Of a stretch of DNA of 64,000 nt, positions 9,741 through 34,529 are shown piece after piece; position 1 is the stretch's first letter, and the number at the start of each line of letters is the position of its first letter. The DNA is taken from positions 64,001 to 128,000 of the forward strand of contig CBDFLE010000005.1 in assembly GCA_965248925.1 (NCBI GenBank), in the 5' to 3' direction. The notes under the pieces are model-generated. The model saw only the letters and a list, made by a program, of their open reading frames with translations, searched no databases and was not told where the DNA came from. Made by a program: the position numbers and the translations under genes. The stretch is from Candidatus Multivoradales bacterium. GTDB taxonomy: Bacteria > Acidobacteriota > Thermoanaerobaculia > Multivoradales > J023.

Positions 9741-9940
9741 CGGAGGATCCTCTAGTCGGTTTCGGGAATCTGGACCGAGAGTCGGAACTCTCGAGGCTCT
9801 GGTGAAGTCACCGCCCGATACAGGTCTGCTGATTCGTCTTGGACGCTTGCTACTGACTAGTATGCCGGCGGCGGGAAAAAGGTTGAAGCTTTTGTGGGTG
9901 CAGTTGAATAGGCCGTGGCCTTGGTAGGTAAGGTCACTCA

Positions 9941-26018: not shown

Positions 26019-26299
26019 ATGGCGCGACATTGGAATGCGATTTAGCCATAAAGAAAATGTGTAGAACGCCCCCTTGAATATAAATCGTGGATTCAATTTA
26101 TCCCTTTTCTGCCCATGGAATACTGCGCTTTAAGCTGCTAGGCTTTCCCCTAATCGTGGATCAGGAAAAGTAGGATTCCGCGCCTTGGGCAAGGAATACC
26201 TATAGGGATCCTGTTCCAAAACTGTCCGCAAATGATCTCGAGCTAGATCAATTTGGGTCGCTGAGACTCGTGGTTGGTCATGGCCTGGAGTGTTTAGGG
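26019..26299 (+). promoter_or_regulatory. AT-rich regulatory region at the left edge of the accessory cluster
   Basis: Abrupt AT enrichment after apt. Inverted repeat TTGAAT-N11-ATTCAA (26074-26096). Direct repeat AATCGTGGAT (26083, 26152). Confidence 0.5.
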
Positions 26300-27601
26300 A
26301 TGAGTGTTCAGAGAGAGAGAGAGTTTTCCTCCGCGGACAGCGACTCAGTGCTTGAACCTGGGATTCAGGCCGTGGATGTCCTGATTGTGGACGACGAAGT
26401 TGCCTTGCTGGATTCGCTAACCAGGGCACTCGACTCCAGGCTTCCGCAGCTGACCTTCGCTGCCGCGGAGGACTACGATCAGGCAGAGCGGCTGATTGCC
26501 GAGCACCCTCCGAGGTTGGTGATTTGCGATGTCCGCCTGCCGGGCAGGAGCGGCGTCGAACTCTTTCTCTCAGCCCAAGAGAGATGGCCGCAGGTGCGAT
26601 TCATCCTGATGAGTGGATATTCAATGTCAGCTTCCGATCTCGGGGTCAATGGAGATAGGGCTTATGAGTTCATCGAGAAACCCTTCAAGATCGATGATCT
26701 GGCACTGCGGATAGAAAAGGCCTTGCCGCGGGAGGAATTCTCTGGACAAATTTTCGGTATCTCATTGACCGATCTGCTGCAGCTGATGAGTTTCGGCCGT
26801 AACAGCGCTACGGTAGAGCTGAGCCACCTGGGCCAGAGCGGTCAGATTTTCTTTTCTAATGGCGAGGTCTTTCATGCCGAGGTGGGTGACCTGGAAGGGA
26901 TCGCCGCCTTCAATCGCCTGGTGAGTTGGCGAGACGGCAGCTTCAAGGTCGTGCGTAGTCTATTAACGCCAACGAGAACGATCGATGGTTCGTTCACGGG
27001 TCTGATGATGACCGCCATGCAGGAGTTCGACGAGGCGCGGCGGCAAATTGGTGAGGAATGCGAGGATGCTGGTCTGGAGCAATTGGCTGATACATCCGCG
27101 GGGCCGCCGGCCAGCCCATTTGAGCCCAGTGCCCGGTCGGTGGCCAAGACGGATGCGGAGCAGGCACGAGACTCCCGAGTCGCCTTCGACCATGTATTGC
27201 GAGAAATCCTTGAAGCAGTTCCGGGCGGAATCGCTGCTACAGTAATTGACCTCGAGGAAGGAAGAATCTTGGCTAACCAAGGATCAACGGTGCCCTCCGA
27301 ACCATTGCTGGAATTCATGCTAGCCGCCCTGAGACAAGTTTATGACCCCGCTGCCTCAGCGGCAGGCCATGGAGCTCTGATCCAAAATTTAAGCTTCTCG
27401 ACTTCTTATCTGCATCATTTTTTTACCAGGATAGAACAACAGCAAGTCGTTCTGTGTTTGGTGGTTCGGAAGCCGGTCATCGTTGGTACGGGTTTCGCTG
27501 CGCTCCGGGCGGCATTGCCAGGGGTCGGAGCGCTGATCGGCGAACGATCCGGCGAACCAGGCCGCCAGTCGGCAAGATACGAAACTATGCCTACCCCTTG
27601 A
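26300..27601 (+). CDS. Receiver + DUF4388 + C-terminal roadblock/MglB-like domain protein
   Basis: Receiver: LIVDDE, ICDVRLPG, ILMSG, EKPF. DUF4388: FSGQIFGISLTDLLQL...GQIFFSNGEVFHAE...W.DGSF. The C-terminus resembles the next gene. Confidence 0.8.
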   Translation: MSVQREREFSSADSDSVLEPGIQAVDVLIVDDEVALLDSLTRALDSRLPQLTFAAAEDYDQAERLIAEHPPRLVICDVRLPGRSGVELFLSAQERWPQVRFILMSGYSMSASDLGVNGDRAYEFIEKPFKIDDLALRIEKALPREEFSGQIFGISLTDLLQLMSFGRNSATVELSHLGQSGQIFFSNGEVFHAEVGDLEGIAAFNRLVSWRDGSFKVVRSLLTPTRTIDGSFTGLMMTAMQEFDEARRQIGEECEDAGLEQLADTSAGPPASPFEPSARSVAKTDAEQARDSRVAFDHVLREILEAVPGGIAATVIDLEEGRILANQGSTVPSEPLLEFMLAALRQVYDPAASAAGHGALIQNLSFSTSYLHHFFTRIEQQQVVLCLVVRKPVIVGTGFAALRAALPGVGALIGERSGEPGRQSARYETMPTP

Positions 27602-27696
27602 TCAGCGGACTAGATTCGGACACAATCGAATCCACGAGAGGACTGGGCAGAGTCCGCTAGTGACTCTGTCATTTGACATTCACACGGGAGGAACTC

Positions 27697-28104
27697 ATGA
27701 CAACGATCAACGATCTCTGCAAAGACCTGGTGGAGAACACCCCGGACGGCGTTGCGGCCAATGTCGTCGATCTTTCCAGCGGGATGATGATTGGCGGTCA
27801 TTTCGCGTCAGACTTCACGACCGATCATTTCGAGGCGGTGTCGGCGGCGGCTACCAACCTCTATCGCGGCAAGGAAACCTTGCGGGTTGAAGATCTGGTC
27901 AAGAGCCAGCGCGGCGACACCAGCGACAATCATTTCATGCAGGAGGTGCAGTTCAACACCGACACCCTGCTCCATTTTGTCAAGAAGCTAGAAGGCAAGG
28001 AGGCGATTCTCTGTCTGGTGACTCGCAAGCCGGGCAATGTTGGCATGGGTTGGTCGGCACTCAGGGCGGCATTGCCGAAGGTGACCCCTCTAGTCCCTTC
28101 CTGA
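27697..28104 (+). CDS. Roadblock/LC7 (MglB-like) protein
   Basis: 135 aa with GVAANVVDLSSGMMIG, AAATNLYRG, MQEVQF..HF and LCLVTRKPGNVGM. RBS GGAGG. Confidence 0.75.
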   Translation: MTTINDLCKDLVENTPDGVAANVVDLSSGMMIGGHFASDFTTDHFEAVSAAATNLYRGKETLRVEDLVKSQRGDTSDNHFMQEVQFNTDTLLHFVKKLEGKEAILCLVTRKPGNVGMGWSALRAALPKVTPLVPS

Positions 28105-28163
28105 GCCGCAGCACTGCCGGGTTCCGCGGTGCCGGCGGCTTGTTGAGGCGCCGGCCGCCGTCG

Positions 28164-29051
28164 ATGGACGAGGGAAGAGGGGGACCGGACAGCGATCGCC
28201 CGCAATCTAAGGCCCCTTCGCCGGTTGGTGGTGTCGAGTCGAGTCCCGATAGCTTGCTCTGGGAATATCCCTTCTTGCCCTGCGCCAGAAGGCAGATTCT
28301 CGCCGTGCTGCCGGAAGGCCCTGAGATTGTCGACGAAGTTCTCGCTAGACTGAGAAGTGGCCCAGTAGTATCCCGGCAGGACCTTCGCGGCACCGGCAAC
28401 CTCGGTGGTGGTTCAGGGGGGCAAGCGGGGTACTTCTTGGAAGTCGGTGACTATTTCGCCAAGGCGAATTCGACCCGCCGCTACGCCAGCGTCGATCTGG
28501 CTTGCAGCCACGATCTGCCGGTAGAGGAGCTGCGCCGGAGTCTAGGGATCTACCATTCCAGTAGAATCTGGTTCCTAACTCAAAGCGTTGATGACTGCAT
28601 TTGGGCCTGCTCGCTGACCCGCAAGATGATCTCTCTGCGGGAGATATTCAACCGCCCGCCCGCGGGCTCAGACCCCCTCGCTTGGCAGTTCTTTCTCGAC
28701 GGGCTATGGATGTCCTTGGATCTTGGTCGCAGGGCGGAGGTCATGCTCGACTGCAATCCCAACAACTTCGGCCTCGACGGCGACCAGTTGTGGTACCTGG
28801 ACGATGATCTTCTGACTAGCAAGACGTCGATGTTGGGCTTGCAAGCAGTGCTGCGTTTACGCGAGTATGAGGGCTGTGACTGGAGAGTTCGCAAGACCTT
28901 TCTCGATGGTTTTCTGCAGCTAGTACGGAGCTGCTCCGGCGACGAGCGGCGGCGTTGGAGCCTGACCCGAGAAGCGATATTCGGACTCATTTCGTTGCGT
29001 GACGCCAAGCTGCGGGCAATGCTCGACGATTTCTTTGGCCCGCCGTCCTAG
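28164..29051 (+). CDS. Hypothetical protein with divergent protein-kinase-like motifs
   Basis: Gly-rich GTGNLGGGSGG, YFAK, catalytic-loop-like LDCNPNNFG and YLDDD. Start uncertain (ORF open from 28050). Confidence 0.5.
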   Translation: MDEGRGGPDSDRPQSKAPSPVGGVESSPDSLLWEYPFLPCARRQILAVLPEGPEIVDEVLARLRSGPVVSRQDLRGTGNLGGGSGGQAGYFLEVGDYFAKANSTRRYASVDLACSHDLPVEELRRSLGIYHSSRIWFLTQSVDDCIWACSLTRKMISLREIFNRPPAGSDPLAWQFFLDGLWMSLDLGRRAEVMLDCNPNNFGLDGDQLWYLDDDLLTSKTSMLGLQAVLRLREYEGCDWRVRKTFLDGFLQLVRSCSGDERRRWSLTREAIFGLISLRDAKLRAMLDDFFGPPS

Positions 29052-29066
29052 TAACTCTCACTTGAA

Positions 29067-29891
29067 GTGGATATGCCGATCGACTTTCATCGGGCGCTGG
29101 ACCTGACTCAGCTACCAGTCGTGGGCGATGAGCCGCTGGCGTTGCTCGCCGACATTCACGCCAATATTGAGGCGCTGGCAGCGGTAACCGGCTGGCTGGA
29201 CCAGCACGGCATCAAACAGGCGGTGGTTCTCGGTGATTTGATTGGCTATGGGGCTGCACCGAACGAGGTCCTTGGCGAAATTCGACGCCGCGGCTGGTTG
29301 GCGATCCGTGGCAACCATGAAGACATTTTACTCGATCCAACCTATTCGGAGCAACGGGGCGGCTTGAAGGCTCGAGCTCGGGCGGCGCTCGATTGGACTC
29401 GCCAGCATCTCGACGTCTCCAGCCGGCAGTTTATCGAGTCCCTGCCCTTGGCTGCTGCCTTGGGCCACGAGATGATCGCGGTTCACGGTTCATTGGTCGA
29501 TCCGCGGCGCTGCTATGCCTACATCTATGACCTGAGCCTCGACCTGAACATTCGGCGGATGACTGAGTTGGCCCTACCCCCTGGTATCTTGATTGTCCAC
29601 GGCCACACTCACCAGACGAAGATTTTTCAAGTGCAGGAAGAGGACTGGAATGAACTTGATCCAGCGCCGGGGGAGAGACGACTCGACCCGGCTTCGAGCT
29701 TTTTCATCAATCCGGGCAGCGTTGGATTGCCTCGTGACGGCAATCCACAAGCCAGTTTCATGGTGTGGGACGCGGCTCACCGGAGCCTGCGATCAGTTCG
29801 CGTGGCCTACGATGTACAGTCTGCGGCGCAGCGAATCTTGCTCGCTGGATATAGTGACGAGGTCGCCGAGTACTTGCTTTCGTCTTCTTAG
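29067..29891 (+). CDS. Calcineurin-like metallophosphoesterase (YfcE/MJ0936-type)
   Basis: DIHAN, GDLIGYG, GNHE, VHGS, GHTH and INPGSVG.PRDG motifs. Confidence 0.92.
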   Translation: MDMPIDFHRALDLTQLPVVGDEPLALLADIHANIEALAAVTGWLDQHGIKQAVVLGDLIGYGAAPNEVLGEIRRRGWLAIRGNHEDILLDPTYSEQRGGLKARARAALDWTRQHLDVSSRQFIESLPLAAALGHEMIAVHGSLVDPRRCYAYIYDLSLDLNIRRMTELALPPGILIVHGHTHQTKIFQVQEEDWNELDPAPGERRLDPASSFFINPGSVGLPRDGNPQASFMVWDAAHRSLRSVRVAYDVQSAAQRILLAGYSDEVAEYLLSSS

Positions 29892-29900
29892 CAAAGGAAT

Positions 29901-30347
29901 TTGATGAGTCTGAATTTGTGGTATTGGTCTGGGGCTTTGATCAATCTGGGAGTCGCGACTGGCTGTGCTTTCTTGGGTTGGCGAGAGATACGTCGCGGTC
30001 GGCGGGAAATTCATCGCAAATGGATGAACGCGGCGGTGATTCTGGTGCTTGCTTTCCTGGTCAGCTACCCGCTGAAGCTGATCTTTCTTGGTAAAGAGGA
30101 TCTGCTGCTATGGAGCCATATGGATGTCACCATTCTACGGATACACGAGACCTTCGTGTTGTTGATGGTGCTCAGTGGAGGCGCGGCTCGCTGGCTCGCT
30201 CGTCGGCTGCGCGTAGGCGGTTCGCAAGTTAGTAGTCAGTGGAAGGGCTGGCACCGCTGGTGCGGTCGTATGGCTCTCGGCTGTTCGGCGGGTGGCTTGC
30301 TCACCGCCGCCCTGATCTTGTTAGGGATGGTCCGCCGGATCAACTGA
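29901..30347 (+). CDS. DUF420-like 4-TM membrane protein
   Basis: IRRGRREIHRKWM, FLVSY, RIH and WHRWCGR motifs. Confidence 0.7.
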   Translation: MMSLNLWYWSGALINLGVATGCAFLGWREIRRGRREIHRKWMNAAVILVLAFLVSYPLKLIFLGKEDLLLWSHMDVTILRIHETFVLLMVLSGGAARWLARRLRVGGSQVSSQWKGWHRWCGRMALGCSAGGLLTAALILLGMVRRIN

Positions 30348-31667
30348 GTGGGTGCCGCGGTCGTTGACAAACTGGGCGAACTGATCGATGAATGCAAGCT
30401 GGCGGTTGCTCTGGATGTAGTTCGGGTTGATCGCCCGAACTCGGTGAATGGCGCACACCGCGCTGTTGCCACGGTAAGTCAGAAAGCAGGCCAAAATCGT
30501 TCCAGTACGCCCCAGTCCCGCTCGGCAGTGGACGACGGTCGGCAGCCGACGGTGAATCCAGCCGTCGATTCGCTGGCAGAGCTGATAAGCGGCTTCGGCG
30601 TCCGGCGCATTCATGTCCGGGATGGGGAAGTGAAAGGTTTCGATGCCTAGCTCCGTCAGCAATGGAGAGACGAAAGGCTGCTCCCTCAAAGTCAGCAAGA
30701 CTTTGCAGCCCAGTCCCTTCAAGGCCCGAATATCGTCTGCTTCGTCATGCAATAGGCCGGGTTGCTGCATCCCGCCGAGCTGCCTATCGAGGACCCAATG
30801 AAAGCTGCTGGGGACCGACCAGCTGCTTCTCAGTGGTGATGTTGGAGCAGGGCGATGCGGGGCGCTGCTGGGTGCCACTTGCCGCGGCCAGCAATTGCCG
30901 AGCCGGATAAAGTCTCGGGCCAGCTCGGTTTGGGGATCTTGATAAAACCGTTCCCGAGTGGCGTGCTCGACTATCCGGCCTCCCGCCAGCAGGCAAATCC
31001 GATCGGCGACTTGGCGACTGCGGTGCTGATTGTGAGTTACCAGCAACACCGCCAGACGTTGGCCCAGGTGCTCTACTAGCTGTTCGATCTTGCCGATCTC
31101 GGAGTCGCTCAAGTCGCGGAAAGGCTCATCCAACAGAAGGCACTCCGCTCCTCCCGCCACCAATCGAGCAATGGCCAGCCGTCGCTGCTCACCGATGCTC
31201 AAAGATATTGCCGGTAGTTGTAGATGGGCTTCGAAATCTTCCCATAGACCTAGGGGTGCAAGGATGGTTTGCGCCAGCTCATCGCCTTGCTGGGTACTTT
31301 GCAGATACGTGGGAATATCGGCGGTGATGTTGGCCAACACCGTTGCGGTGTAGAGTTTTGCCTTCTGAACTAAGAGCGGTACCCTGCGCCGCACTTCCTC
31401 GGCCGCCATTCCATCGAGCAGATCACGCCCTCGCGAGAGGGCGGTGCCAGTGCGCCAGAAGGAGGGGATACCATCGTTCCATCGACCCAGAGTGCGCAAC
31501 AACGTGCTCTTACCGCCACCGGCCGGGCCCATGAGGCAGGAAACTCCGGTCGGTGCCAGTGGTAGATGTACCCGATCTAATACGACCTTATCGTTGAACC
31601 CGACGGAAAGACTCCGTAGTTCGATCAACGGTGGGCTGTCCACCTTATTAGTTGATTGTTCAGGCAC
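30321..31667 (-). CDS. ABC-type ATPase fused to a CX5R dual-specificity/tyrosine phosphatase
   Basis: Walker A GPAGGGKST, signature LSIGEQRR, LLLDEP and VTHN. C-terminal FPIPDM and HCRAGLGRTG. Confidence 0.9.
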   Translation of the reverse strand: MPEQSTNKVDSPPLIELRSLSVGFNDKVVLDRVHLPLAPTGVSCLMGPAGGGKSTLLRTLGRWNDGIPSFWRTGTALSRGRDLLDGMAAEEVRRRVPLLVQKAKLYTATVLANITADIPTYLQSTQQGDELAQTILAPLGLWEDFEAHLQLPAISLSIGEQRRLAIARLVAGGAECLLLDEPFRDLSDSEIGKIEQLVEHLGQRLAVLLVTHNQHRSRQVADRICLLAGGRIVEHATRERFYQDPQTELARDFIRLGNCWPRQVAPSSAPHRPAPTSPLRSSWSVPSSFHWVLDRQLGGMQQPGLLHDEADDIRALKGLGCKVLLTLREQPFVSPLLTELGIETFHFPIPDMNAPDAEAAYQLCQRIDGWIHRRLPTVVHCRAGLGRTGTILACFLTYRGNSAVCAIHRVRAINPNYIQSNRQLAFIDQFAQFVNDRGTHSVDPADHP

Positions 31668-32496
31668 CGATCAGTAGTCCTGTGAGCATCTCGACGAGAG
31701 GGGATTCTCGAGTTTCTAATGTTCCTTGAAGACTGTCTAGAATACAGAGAATATCGGCCAGGGGGCGTCCTTCAAGACCGGCGGCAGCTACCGGTGCGGC
31801 AAGCAATAATCGCAAAGTATCCAGATCAGCCGGTGGGTCGTCGCCTGCTTTTTCCGGCAGGGTGCCGACGTAGTGCGGCTCGCCGCCGAGGCGCCGACCC
31901 ACGGATTCTAGGGTCGGTCGCAGGTGGGCCGACTGGCTGCTGGCTGCGAAAGCCTCGGCGGTTCTAAGGAAGTGGCGACTGGCATCCAAGAGTTGATCGA
32001 CGGTGTCTTGTGGACTTGCCCCGCGCAGCGCCGAGGCAATTTCCTGCTCAAGGCACGTTTCGCGGCGGACGATTTGCCACAGACGCCAGCTGCCTACTCC
32101 GGTCTTGGCCAGAGCGATACAGCGCCATTCTGATAACGTCGTTCCGAGTCCCGAGTGTAGGCGAGCCCACTCGATCAGACGCTGCCGCCCCTTATCGAGT
32201 TGGGTGAAGAAGTGTTCGCGGTAGGAAAGCGCTAACCAGCGGTCGCCGATCTCTGCCCGCCAGTCGCCTCCAGGCTGCTGCTCTGCCAATCCGCGGCTGT
32301 CTAATTCTTGCAGCACTGAACGACCCAGGACAGGTGGCCAAATACAGCCGCTCGCTACATCTTTGCGCGGCAAGTCTGGTGGCTGTCGCGGAGCCGCAGT
32401 GGCACTCTGCTCGCGTTCATCCGAATCGAGGATCGGTGGCTCGGCGCCTACTTCTTCTGCTTCTGCTTCTGCTTGCATTACTTGTTGCAACCACAC
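31660..32496 (-). CDS. Hypothetical protein, probably the detached C-terminal region of the upstream GTPase
   Basis: Overlaps the GTPase stop in the -1 frame. Begins with an acidic/Pro linker, then PDLP..VASGCIWPPVLGR. Confidence 0.55.
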   Translation of the reverse strand: MWLQQVMQAEAEAEEVGAEPPILDSDEREQSATAAPRQPPDLPRKDVASGCIWPPVLGRSVLQELDSRGLAEQQPGGDWRAEIGDRWLALSYREHFFTQLDKGRQRLIEWARLHSGLGTTLSEWRCIALAKTGVGSWRLWQIVRRETCLEQEIASALRGASPQDTVDQLLDASRHFLRTAEAFAASSQSAHLRPTLESVGRRLGGEPHYVGTLPEKAGDDPPADLDTLRLLLAAPVAAAGLEGRPLADILCILDSLQGTLETRESPLVEMLTGLLIGA

Positions 32497-33236
32497 GCTC
32501 GCCGCGGCAGGATGCTGCTCAGTGACCGTGAGTTATCGAAAGTCGCTGACTGCTGCTCTGCCGAATCACTGACCAGCGGCACTAGTTTGAGTTGTTCGAG
32601 GAGTTCTTTGCCAGCTTGAGGACGGGTCTGGCTGATCGGCAGTTCCTGGTTTCGCATTTGCTCACGGACCCGGTCCAGAGCCTGACGGACGGCCGCTACG
32701 AAGGATTCGCGAATGCCCAGTCCATGGCTTGCGGTCGATTCGACCAAGACTAGCCTGGGGTGCTCCAGAAACAACTCGCGCAGTTTCTGGAGCGGCACCG
32801 CACCGGGCAAGTCTCTCTTGTTGGCTTGCAGAACAAGACCCGCCGGTGGGCCGGGCTCCCGTTCCAACAACGGCAATAAGCTGTCAAAGGTAGGTAAAGC
32901 TTGTTCCAATCGCGCGGGGTCACTGTCGACGACAAAAATCACTGCGTCGGCATCAGCGAGCAAGAATTTACGCCTTTCTATTAGGGATTTTTGCCCAGGA
33001 ACGCTGACGATCTGACAGCGGACCGAATGACCGTTGACTACCCCGCCCCGGTATTCCATCCAGTCGAAAAAGAGTGTCCGTCCGCTCGCCTCGGCTGGGG
33101 AGAATACTGAACTGCGCCGACTTTGAGCAACAGTCGTCGCTAGGGCTCGAACCGAAGTGGTCTTCCCCGAGAGAGGTGGGCCGTCGTAAACGATCCTGAC
33201 AACAACATCCTGACTCCCTGGGTCTAGCCAAGCCAT
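32478..33236 (-). CDS. MglA-like small (Ras-like) GTPase
   Basis: G1 YDGPPLSGKTT, G2 RTLFFD, G3 SVPGQ, ADAVIFVVDS, G4 NKRD and G5 STA. Confidence 0.88.
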   Translation of the reverse strand: MAWLDPGSQDVVVRIVYDGPPLSGKTTSVRALATTVAQSRRSSVFSPAEASGRTLFFDWMEYRGGVVNGHSVRCQIVSVPGQKSLIERRKFLLADADAVIFVVDSDPARLEQALPTFDSLLPLLEREPGPPAGLVLQANKRDLPGAVPLQKLRELFLEHPRLVLVESTASHGLGIRESFVAAVRQALDRVREQMRNQELPISQTRPQAGKELLEQLKLVPLVSDSAEQQSATFDNSRSLSSILPRRACGCNK

Positions 33237-33338: not shown

Positions 33339-33746
33339 TCAGGCTGCTGCCTCGACCGGGTCTAGCATCTGCCTTGTCTTGGCGATCACCATGCCGAGGT
33401 TGGCGCCGCCACGAGTGACGGTGACCAGCACCTGCTCCTGGTACCTCTTGCCACGAATGAAAACGTGGATCAGGTTTTGCGACATCACCAGGATCTCTTT
33501 GAAATAGTGCTCGTCGTCGTCGTCCGGCAGGCCCCGGACCTTCTTGAACAGTTTTTCAATAGTAGTAACGTTGCTACCCTGAAAAAGATCGCCAGTCGCG
33601 GCAGCCAAGATGTCGAGCACTTCCTGCGGGTGCGAATCCACCGTCTTGTAGGCCAGTAGCATGCCGGTGTTCATGTCGATGAAACCAGCCGCCAAACATT
33701 CCGGAACAGTCTTGACAACGTCACCAATCACCGAATCCAAAGACAT
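33339..33746 (-). CDS. Roadblock/LC7 (MglB-like) protein
   Basis: VPECLAAGFIDMNTGMLL, AAATGDLFQG, YFKEILV..HVF and ANLGM. Lies directly upstream of the GTPase. Confidence 0.78.
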   Translation of the reverse strand: MSLDSVIGDVVKTVPECLAAGFIDMNTGMLLAYKTVDSHPQEVLDILAAATGDLFQGSNVTTIEKLFKKVRGLPDDDDEHYFKEILVMSQNLIHVFIRGKRYQEQVLVTVTRGGANLGMVIAKTRQMLDPVEAAA

Positions 33747-33890: not shown

Positions 33891-34529
33891 ATGCTTTTTG
33901 GCCTAACCCAAGTTTGTCTGCCGTGTCGCGATCTTGCTCTGTCCCTGCGCTTCTATTCTGACCTTCTGGGCTTTCCTTTGCTGCGAAGATCTGACCTCCA
34001 GGCCGATCTGGACGCCAACGGAGGGGGCATCCGTCTGTGTCAGACAGATAGCAATATTGGGCCGTCCCTGCGCCTGCGGCTGCATACCACCGAGCCGGCC
34101 GAGGCGGTGCGAGAGTTGATTGCCCAAGGGGCCAGCCGAGGAGCCGCCACGCGCCGCAGTGCAGAACTCGAGTGGATCGGTGAGATTGTCGATCCGGACG
34201 GCCACCGGCTGGAGCTTTGGTGCGCGCTGAGCGAGGACGAGCTGGACTTCGTCCCCGACCTGCCGACCTCCCTGGAATGGACTTCGTCCGCCACTGCCTT
34301 GTTGCAGGCTCTGCTGGCCGGAGTGCCTGAGTCGTTTCGCGCGCCGGCAAGGGAGAACACTGTTCGCACGGCCGAGTATCTGGCTGGCTCCAGCTTGCGT
34401 GTGGGTCGGCGGGAGGCGATTCGCGGCTTTGTTCGGGCAACTCCTCGATTGCGTCGTGATCAGCTGAAGCCAGCGCTGCGGCAGCAGGCGATTGATCCGG
34501 CGGATTATCGAAGGGATTTCGATTCGTGA
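33891..34529 (+). CDS. VOC/glyoxalase domain + DUF2621/PCP_red-like helical domain
   Basis: QVCLPCRDLALSLRFYSDLLG...DPDGHRLEL, then W..ATALL..VPESFR..AR...IRGFVRATP..IDP.DY..F. Confidence 0.7.
   Translation: MLFGLTQVCLPCRDLALSLRFYSDLLGFPLLRRSDLQADLDANGGGIRLCQTDSNIGPSLRLRLHTTEPAEAVRELIAQGASRGAATRRSAELEWIGEIVDPDGHRLELWCALSEDELDFVPDLPTSLEWTSSATALLQALLAGVPESFRAPARENTVRTAEYLAGSSLRVGRREAIRGFVRATPRLRRDQLKPALRQQAIDPADYRRDFDS

Follow-up and report, generated by a model that had tools for sequence, protein, structure and literature searches.

What does an ATP-binding cassette (ABC) ATPase do when it has no transporter beside it and a phosphatase attached to its C-terminus? This question is raised by a gene in a 64,000-nucleotide stretch of the Candidatus Multivoradales bacterium assembly GCA_965248925.1 (contig CBDFLE010000005.1, positions 64,001 to 128,000; hereafter the window, whose own numbering we use throughout). 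At positions 30321..31667 of the minus strand, stop codon included, an open reading frame (ORF) of 448 amino acids with a GTG start encodes an ABC nucleotide-binding domain (NBD), a Pro/Ser-rich linker, and a cysteine phosphatase. An earlier note on this DNA had placed the fusion at these coordinates and proposed that its ATPase had been repurposed as an ATP-dependent dimerisation or sensor switch gating the phosphatase. The coordinates were correct, with the ORF on the minus strand (the plus-strand translation of the interval is riddled with stops), and both domains, the linker, and all six motifs quoted in that note were present, in agreement with Pfam. Our analysis indicates that the fusion protein is very probably a signalling enzyme and not part of a transporter. 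On balance, we lean towards a soluble phosphatase that is switched by nucleotide, has a Roadblock protein as its dedicated regulator, and is plugged in this genome into an MglA/PATAN module.

The gene itself is supported by its ORF, Pfam and NCBIfam matches, an AlphaFold2 (AF2) model, and more than 100 full-length homologues. Its GTG start overlaps the stop codon of the upstream ORF by 8 bases. The gene call of the source genome is 45 residues shorter (403 amino acids, starting at Met46). Residues 14-45 have aligned counterparts in every homologue and would be lost with this start, so that the longer 448-amino acid ORF appears the more likely product. The gene is single-copy in the source genome. 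A search of sequencing runs for RNA evidence found no RNA run containing the gene, and the four runs containing 0.99 of the sampled words correspond to one sample, possibly the source itself, and offer no independent support.

The N-terminal domain (30900..31628, minus strand; residues ~14-256) possesses the motifs of an ABC NBD: GPAGGGKST at residues 47-55 (Walker A, 47-54), the Q-loop glutamine Q101, the signature region LSIGEQRR (156-163), LLLDEP (177-182) with the Walker B pair D180-E181, and the H-loop H212 within VTHN (210-213). It ends in a conserved GNCWP motif (257-261). The Pfam domain ABC_tran (PF00005) matched residues 30-183 with 62 bits against a cut-off of 25. The resemblance to PstB noticed earlier by eye was borne out by profile and fold searches, since the best NCBIfam model for the fusion was PstB TIGR00972 (164.5 bits) and the closest Foldseek match of the domain was Escherichia coli PstB (9k3x; E 2.7e-21, template modelling score (TM) by target 0.90, 29% identity). 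Because the TIGR00972 score falls under the family cut-off of 343.2 bits, the domain is better described as PstB-like than as PstB. The AF2 model of the fusion, computed from a 28-sequence alignment, had a predicted local distance difference test score (pLDDT) of 89.5 and a predicted TM (pTM) of 0.85, with low confidence in the linker only. In all 28 aligned homologues, G47, P48, G52, K53, Q101, D180, E181, P182, and H212 are invariant. Judging from these residues, the domain should still be able to bind and hydrolyse ATP.

The C-terminal domain (30348..30803, minus strand; residues ~289-440) is a cysteine phosphatase of the dual-specificity phosphatase (DSP)/protein tyrosine phosphatase (PTP) type, with D351, C381, and R387 in place. 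Its acid loop is FPIPDM (347-352, in the context FPIPDMNAP) and its P-loop HCRAGLGRTG (380-389). Three DSP-PTPase families of Pfam cover residues ~287-406 of the fusion; scores exceeded the cut-offs for Tc-R-P (73 bits versus 27, on residues 299-400), PTP-SAK (60.4 versus 27), CDKN3 (32.9 versus 20.7), and Y_phosphatase (28.5 versus 20.9), and remained below it for DSPc (25.2 versus 33.5). The closest solved relative is the standalone 'dual specificity protein phosphatase family protein' 25xa (E 1.4e-25), followed by ShufPTP, TkPTP, DUSP23, and SsoPTP, which are archaeal or human small protein phosphatases; matches to this group ranged from E 1.4e-25 to 1.3e-10. Among the 28 homologues, P348, D351, M352, and P355 of the acid loop and H380, C381, G384, G386, R387, T388, and G389 of the P-loop are invariant, and the P-loop consensus HC(K/R)AGLGRTGT is invariant as a whole. 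Since the catalytic residues of both domains are unchanged in 28 diverse members, both halves of the fusion seem to be under selection for catalysis.

A word-indexed search returned more than 100 full-length homologues of 403-485 amino acids, 35-50% identical to the query and with both Pfam domains precomputed, whose source names include Gammaproteobacteria, Myxococcales, Nitrospira, Labilithrix, and Frigoriglobus. A HMMER pass over 1.84 billion cluster representatives retrieved 394 clusters (at 50% identity) with E<=1e-30, and most of the best 150 of these span both halves of the query. The suspicion of an assembly chimera, raised earlier as a possible objection, thus fails: the fusion is genuine and widespread. 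It is rare within phyla: samples of 201 genomes from the window's phylum and 401 from Pseudomonadota yielded it in 3 and at least 6 genomes, respectively (the latter a lower bound, with four candidates scored per genome). The parts are of known kinds and their combination lacks a curated family. Homologues carry names that are either too general or misleading, such as 'ATP-binding cassette domain-containing protein', 'atypical dual specificity phosphatase', and 'putative toxin'. No account of the fusion turned up in full-text literature searches; such neighbours may be listed in the supplementary tables of Wuichet and Sogaard-Andersen 2014 (PMC4316618), which lay outside the search.

The most informative companion of the fusion is a small protein encoded by the first gene of the same minus-strand string (33339-33746). 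The ORF reaches 33851 and comprises 170 amino acids, with translation probably starting at Met36 to yield 135 amino acids, given that the homologues all measure 133-143. This protein did not match Robl_LC7 (PF03259) even at E<=10, nor any other Pfam family, and none of its best 120 homologues carried a precomputed Pfam domain. Its AF2 model (pLDDT 90.6) displays the alpha-beta-beta-alpha-beta-beta-beta-alpha topology of the Roadblock fold (helix 3-13, strands 17-24 and 29-35, helix 41-71, strands 84-88, 92-98, and 105-112, helix 117-134). Foldseek matches, all with E between 1e-8 and 1e-6, included the Roadblock/LC7 protein 3kye (E 1.3e-8), MglB from Thermus and Myxococcus (1j3w, 3t1r, 6hjm; TM ~0.69), and Ragulator subunits. 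The family has 2248 hits, of which the best 120 are 62-93% identical to the query and bear source names such as Sandaracinus, Acidobacteriota, and Bryobacteraceae, spanning Myxococcota and Acidobacteriota. By these identities, the partner appears clearly better conserved than the enzyme that it accompanies. Roadblock-fold proteins are regulators of nucleoside triphosphatases (NTPases), as exemplified by MglB and Ragulator, and Koonin and Aravind reportedly proposed such a role for Roadblock proteins.

The partner follows the fusion strictly across genomes. It occurs in all 16 related loci that hold the phosphatase half, namely eight metagenome loci, two genomes of the window's phylum, and six Pseudomonadota genomes. 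The metagenome loci come from a set of 80 fetched with the family alignment, exactly eight of which contain the phosphatase half; a Roadblock orthologue (E<=1e-46) was found in precisely those eight and in none of the 72 loci with a plain NBD. Likewise, in the sample of 201 genomes of the phylum, partner orthologues (E<=6.5e-38) are restricted to the three genomes with the fusion, and two further genomes have distant Roadblock paralogues only (36-38% identity) and no close match to the phosphatase. The partner gene is directly adjacent to the fusion gene in 15 of the 16 loci, downstream in 12 and upstream in three; in the remaining one (L099), as in the window, the two lie two genes apart in the same string. 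The earlier note had put the fusion downstream of a Roadblock-GTPase pair in one operon. This holds for the window, where both genes are upstream on the same strand, but the constant partner is the Roadblock protein, with the GTPase detected in only 6 of the 16 related loci (L018, L019, L020, L026, L099, and L110).

No transporter component, by contrast, accompanies the fusion, as that note had also stated for the cluster. In the window, 12 ORFs between 26270 and 36812 were scanned with Pfam, and none of them was recognised as an ABC permease or a binding protein. In 15 related loci, 95 non-overlapping ORFs of at least 90 amino acids lie within 4 kb of the gene pair. Of these, 93 were scanned, and none has a permease or binding-protein domain; the remaining two correspond to a paralogue of the Roadblock protein and to an ORF that overlaps the Roadblock gene in antisense. 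The source genome has a pstC-pstA-pstB-like operon on another contig, the ATPase of which scores 276 bits on the PstB model. A search of genome contigs for related loci, made with the fusion protein alone as query, returned only plain ABC NBDs (L001-L007) and was uninformative about context.

These features suggest a cytoplasmic, transporter-independent enzyme in which a PstB-derived NBD would have been joined to a cysteine phosphatase similar to VHZ and SsoPTP, and which would form a two-gene unit with its dedicated Roadblock protein. The Roadblock protein may help to set the nucleotide state that the ABC domain adopts, and this state may control the access to, or the activity of, the phosphatase, which in turn would remove phosphate from a signalling phosphoprotein. 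The Roadblock protein would contact the ABC domain and either regulate the switch or couple it to a GTPase. The unit might behave as a plug-in, connected in the window to an MglA-like GTPase, two more Roadblock paralogues, a PATAN response regulator, and a metallophosphoesterase, and elsewhere to Ras/CvnD-like GTPases or OmpR-type two-component systems. In a bolder version, to which we give limited credence, the cognate target of the Roadblock protein would be the ABC ATPase itself and not a GTPase. The pair would be a self-contained, ATP-timed protein phosphatase switch that different bacteria connect to G-protein, PATAN, or two-component pathways, and the cysteine of GNCWP would add redox control. 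If true, the role of Roadblock proteins as NTPase regulators would extend from small GTPases to an ABC domain. A complex prediction for the fusion (A1) with the Roadblock partner (A2) gave scores of 0.00 and 0.01 against a mark of 0.32, a result that counts neither way.

Other explanations deserve consideration. The fusion might still be a transporter ATPase, a paralogue of PstB docking in trans on PstCA or on some other permease encoded elsewhere, with its phosphatase tuning phosphate signalling. PstB is indeed the nearest relative of the NBD by both profile and fold, the Q-loop glutamine is invariant, and the genome encodes a pstCAB-like operon. Yet this operon has its own PstB-like ATPase, neither the window nor the 15 related loci contain a permease or binding protein near the fusion, and in two relatives much of the helical subdomain, the part in contact with permeases, is missing. 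The neighbour that recurs at every locus is a Roadblock protein rather than a membrane protein; we therefore regard a function in trans as highly improbable. A different possibility is that the phosphatase acts on a small molecule or a lipid (a phosphorylated nucleotide, an NAD-derived metabolite, or a phosphoinositide-like lipid), with the ABC domain sensing nucleotides. The best Pfam models (Tc-R-P, PTP-SAK, and PTP-NADK), weaker PTEN and phytase-like matches, and the metallophosphoesterase found in the same gene set would fit such a substrate. The closest solved relatives (25xa, ShufPTP, TkPTP, DUSP23, and SsoPTP), however, are small protein tyrosine or dual-specificity phosphatases, the neighbours are GTPases, response regulators, and kinases, and one relative (P0153) carries a Ser/Thr protein kinase domain at its N-terminus, which makes this alternative unlikely. 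The Pfam description of Tc-R-P ('polymorphic toxin system'), the NCBI name of the homologue P0093 ('phosphatase domain-containing putative toxin'), and the invariable presence of a small, tightly linked neighbour gene could evoke instead a conflict system composed of a toxin and its immunity protein. We find this barely credible, since only an ABC NBD precedes the phosphatase, with no secretion, trafficking, or repeat domain. Moreover, the neighbour is a Roadblock-fold protein with 62-93% identity among its best 120 homologues, the opposite of fast-evolving immunity proteins, and the fusion is single-copy in the source genome and surrounded by signalling genes.

Several observations nevertheless weigh against a nucleotide-switched protein phosphatase. 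In accordance with the deviation from LSGGQ pointed out in the earlier note, the window protein has LSIGE and none of the 28 aligned homologues has LSGGQ; the pattern across them is L-[SP]-[ILM]-[GA]-x-Q-[RK], with Q also at position 3 and P also at position 4. In two relatives from the same phylum, L098 and L099, the helical subdomain is shortened and has no recognisable signature: the spacing between Walker A and Walker B is 69 amino acids in L098 and 84 in L099, compared with 117-135 in 115 (typical values being 122-130) and 102-104 in 4 of the 119 top hits measured. Because of this non-canonical signature and of the shortened subdomain in two relatives, the classical ATP-sandwich dimer may not form, and canonical dimerisation of this kind seems to us doubtful. 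In addition, 10 of the 16 related loci (some of them on short contigs) showed no GTPase, so that the link to G-protein signalling is not universal, and the toxin and nucleotide-metabolism names of the best Pfam matches (Tc-R-P, PTP-SAK, and PTP-NADK) make a non-protein substrate possible.

The NBD data also bear on the alternative of a pseudo-ATPase, that is, an ABC domain that binds nucleotide without turnover and serves only as a tether between the phosphatase and the Roadblock/GTPase complex. All 28 homologues have a degenerate signature, and the D-loop is altered: the window protein has DEPFRDLS, which is not of the SALD type, and its subclade DEP(L/F)RD, while a more distant subclade keeps DEPT(S/T)GL. 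The reduced helical subdomain of L098 and L099 points in the same direction, as do 17 long relatives (654-1903 amino acids), many of which have an extra ABC_tran domain upstream of the NBD-phosphatase unit. In a regular-expression search, 16 of the 17 had a single canonical Walker A and nine had two Walker-B-like DEP motifs. These tandem arrangements would fit an internal pseudo-dimer with one active site. On the other side, the glutamate following Walker B and the H-loop histidine are invariant in 28 of 28 homologues, which would not be expected if hydrolysis were dispensable, and we consider a pseudo-ATPase improbable. The notion of a repurposed ATPase survives in part. It agrees with the lack of a transporter partner, the separate pstCAB-like operon, the invariant catalytic residues, and the location of the gene in a signalling cluster with Roadblock and small-GTPase genes; its component of ATP-driven dimerisation is weakened by the signature and helical-subdomain data, even if the tandem-NBD relatives hint at paired NBDs. 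The nucleotide-switch phosphatase with a dedicated Roadblock regulator remains the reading that we favour.

In the window, the gene pair belongs to a minus-strand string in the order Roadblock protein, MglA-like GTPase, 278-amino acid ORF, and fusion, with small gaps or overlaps. The GTPase (32478..33236, minus strand; 252 amino acids with a C-terminal extension) was identified by comparison with the Protein Data Bank (PDB), by Pfam, and by its motifs: it matches MglA 3t12 (E 1.2e-25), Myxococcus xanthus MglA (~5e-24), and Pfam Arf (30.9 bits), and contains G1 GPPLSGKT, G3 VPGQ, and G4 NKRD. The 278-amino acid ORF (31660..32496, minus strand) lies between the GTPase and the fusion and shares a few bases with each of them. 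It belongs to no family, none of the 16 related loci contains a homologue, and the Atlas gave it a low recognition value and no usable hit. It may be lineage-specific, or else the tail of the GTPase may be longer than called.

A second operon converges on this string from the plus strand. Its first gene (26270..27601), recognised by Pfam, encodes a response regulator with receiver (REC) and PATAN (DUF4388) domains and a Roadblock-like C-terminus similar to the Roadblock paralogues. It is followed by a second Roadblock paralogue of 143 amino acids (27673..28104, plus strand; 27% identity to the partner, E 7e-19) with an orthologue in L099, a conserved ORF of 333 amino acids (28050..29051, plus strand; 248 amino acids in the genome's own call), and a calcineurin-like metallophosphoesterase (29067..29891, plus strand) supported by Pfam, tblastn, and phmmer. 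A DUF420 membrane protein is also encoded in this string. The family of the 333-amino acid ORF (alignment A3) conserves GGSGGQ, an invariant lysine, LDCNPNNF, and YxDDD, a pattern that resembles the Gly-loop, lysine, catalytic loop, and metal loop of kinase-like folds. An Atlas lead to DUF6206 for this ORF was confirmed neither by Pfam on 10 members nor by a PDB profile search. Two homologues of this ORF come from sources whose longest contigs equal in length those given for fusion proteins (16228 and 6557). The 278- and 333-amino acid ORFs are not paralogues of each other. In L099 (genome G050), the same families form one colinear string comprising the REC-PATAN regulator, the second Roadblock protein, the Roadblock partner, a GTPase fused to the 333-amino acid family, the metallophosphoesterase, and, directly downstream of it, the fusion. 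This colinearity suggests that the two convergent operons of the window constitute one functional set. One further Roadblock paralogue, 26% identical to the partner, is encoded elsewhere on the same contig, outside the window (C5:1041922-1042290).

The surroundings of the pair vary in other genomes. GTPases of the ATP_bind_1/Ras type adjoin it in L018, L019, L020, and L110, and extra Roadblock genes recognisable as Robl_LC7 by Pfam are present in L019, L021, and L022. In L111-L113, an OmpR-type response regulator, a histidine kinase, and a GGDEF protein come after the pair, with no GTPase in view. L026 contains one open frame of 694 amino acids (L026:295-2379) in which an MglA-like GTPase, a long Ala/Pro-rich stretch, and the Roadblock partner follow one another; in this locus the NBD and the phosphatase occupy two ORFs in different frames, 4 bases apart, which represents either a split form or an assembly frameshift. 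Fusions of a 2Fe-2S ferredoxin with a bacterial globin adjoin the pair in L021:2563-3690, L022:3167-4270, and L027:2279-3646, and may supply a redox or gas-sensing input to the cysteine phosphatase. Next to the Roadblock gene of the window, and divergent from it, lies a gene for a glyoxalase-like/DUF2621 protein (33891-34529, plus strand), the first in a string that also encodes another DUF2621 protein and an ABC1/UbiB-type kinase; a 38%-identical homologue adjoins the Roadblock gene in one Pseudomonadota genome (L108:5431-6063).

The segment connecting the two domains of the fusion (30804..30899, minus strand; residues 257-288) was delimited by sequence, alignment, and pLDDT, and consists of the GNCWP motif and the Pro/Ser-rich linker (~261-288; pLDDT 54-72 over residues 261-290 of the AF2 model). 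The cysteine position of GNCWP holds Ala or Ser in some homologues. In the fusion homologue L098 (genome G176), an in-frame TGA at 9924-9926 aligns to Cys259 of the conserved G[NS]CWP; past this codon, the reading frame continues uninterrupted and conserved across the phosphatase domain. Selenocysteine machinery is encoded in this genome, with SelB scoring 344 bits (above the cut-off) and tRNA-Sec 73 bits. No fold resembling a selenocysteine insertion sequence (SECIS) was found: the RNA downstream of the TGA folded no better than shuffled sequences (z 0.43) and matched no Rfam family. The TGA may be a selenocysteine variant or a nonsense mutation; its position and the available machinery fit selenocysteine.

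Some of the long relatives have additional N-terminal sequence. A conserved N-terminal region is common to P0157, P0165, P0176, P0190, P0196, P0214, P0236, P0241, and P0242 (segments of ~390-1160 amino acids compared), and is followed in P0157 by a Pro/Ala-rich linker. The N-terminal region of the tandem-NBD relatives had no Pfam match at E<=1e-5, and no similarity was found between these domains and the proteins of the window's module.

ABC NBDs are nearly always regarded as the engines of transporters or as nucleic-acid machines, and Roadblock proteins as partners of small GTPases. If the ATP state and the Roadblock protein control the phosphatase, the pair would represent a new bacterial coupling of nucleotide switching to dephosphorylation, and would help to clarify by what means MglA-like, conservon-like, and two-component modules are reset. 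Judging by source names, the family reaches several phyla; its sequence clusters number in the hundreds, and no curated family covers the fusion.

Each component has recognisable counterparts among known systems. With PstB of the PstSCAB importer (TIGR00972; 9k3s/9k3x), the fusion has in common the Walker A, Q-loop, Walker B-Glu, and H-loop, but it differs by its score under the family cut-off, LSIGE, the altered D-loop, the absence of PstC, PstA, and PstS neighbours, and the C-terminal phosphatase. NBDs working without a permease are found in PhnK/PhnL on the C-P lyase (7z15/7z16) and in the SufC-like SmsC (9h7x), which are among the fold matches of the fusion. Non-transport ABC ATPases of these types work as NBD dimers. 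Unlike the fusion, they have neither a covalent Cys phosphatase nor a pairing with a Roadblock protein. The small PTPs and DSPs (25xa; ShufPTP, 9e9l; TkPTP, 5z5a; DUSP23/VHZ, 4erc; SsoPTP, 2i6i) resemble the phosphatase half in the HCX5R(S/T) motif, the IPD-type acid loop, and the size of ~150 amino acids. They are single-domain proteins, whereas here the phosphatase is the C-terminal half of an ABC fusion and comes after a conserved FHWV..LGGMQxPGLL segment.

At the level of gene neighbourhoods, the window can be compared with the MglA/MglB and PATAN systems, having likewise an MglA-like GTPase, Roadblock-fold proteins, and a PATAN response regulator. PATAN-MglA/MglB neighbourhoods are described as occasional for MglA groups 1 and 5 in the passages of Wuichet and Sogaard-Andersen 2014 (PMC4316618) devoted to these systems, which mention no ABC-phosphatase. 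The partner Roadblock protein of the window departs from these systems in that it misses Pfam Robl_LC7 and tracks the ABC-phosphatase, not the GTPase, across genomes. DUF742/CvnC was not detected in the scanned loci. The actinobacterial conservon, as outlined in the corresponding passage of the same paper (PMC4316618), combines the sensor kinase-like ATPase CvnA, the Roadblock protein CvnB, CvnC, and the GTPase CvnD. It thus resembles our loci as an operon with an ATP-using signalling enzyme, one or more Roadblock proteins, and a small GTPase, several of the loci having ATP_bind_1/Ras-type GTPases like CvnD. In that outline, however, CvnA is a membrane protein similar to histidine kinases, whereas the ATP-using part of the present system is an ABC NBD fused to a phosphatase.

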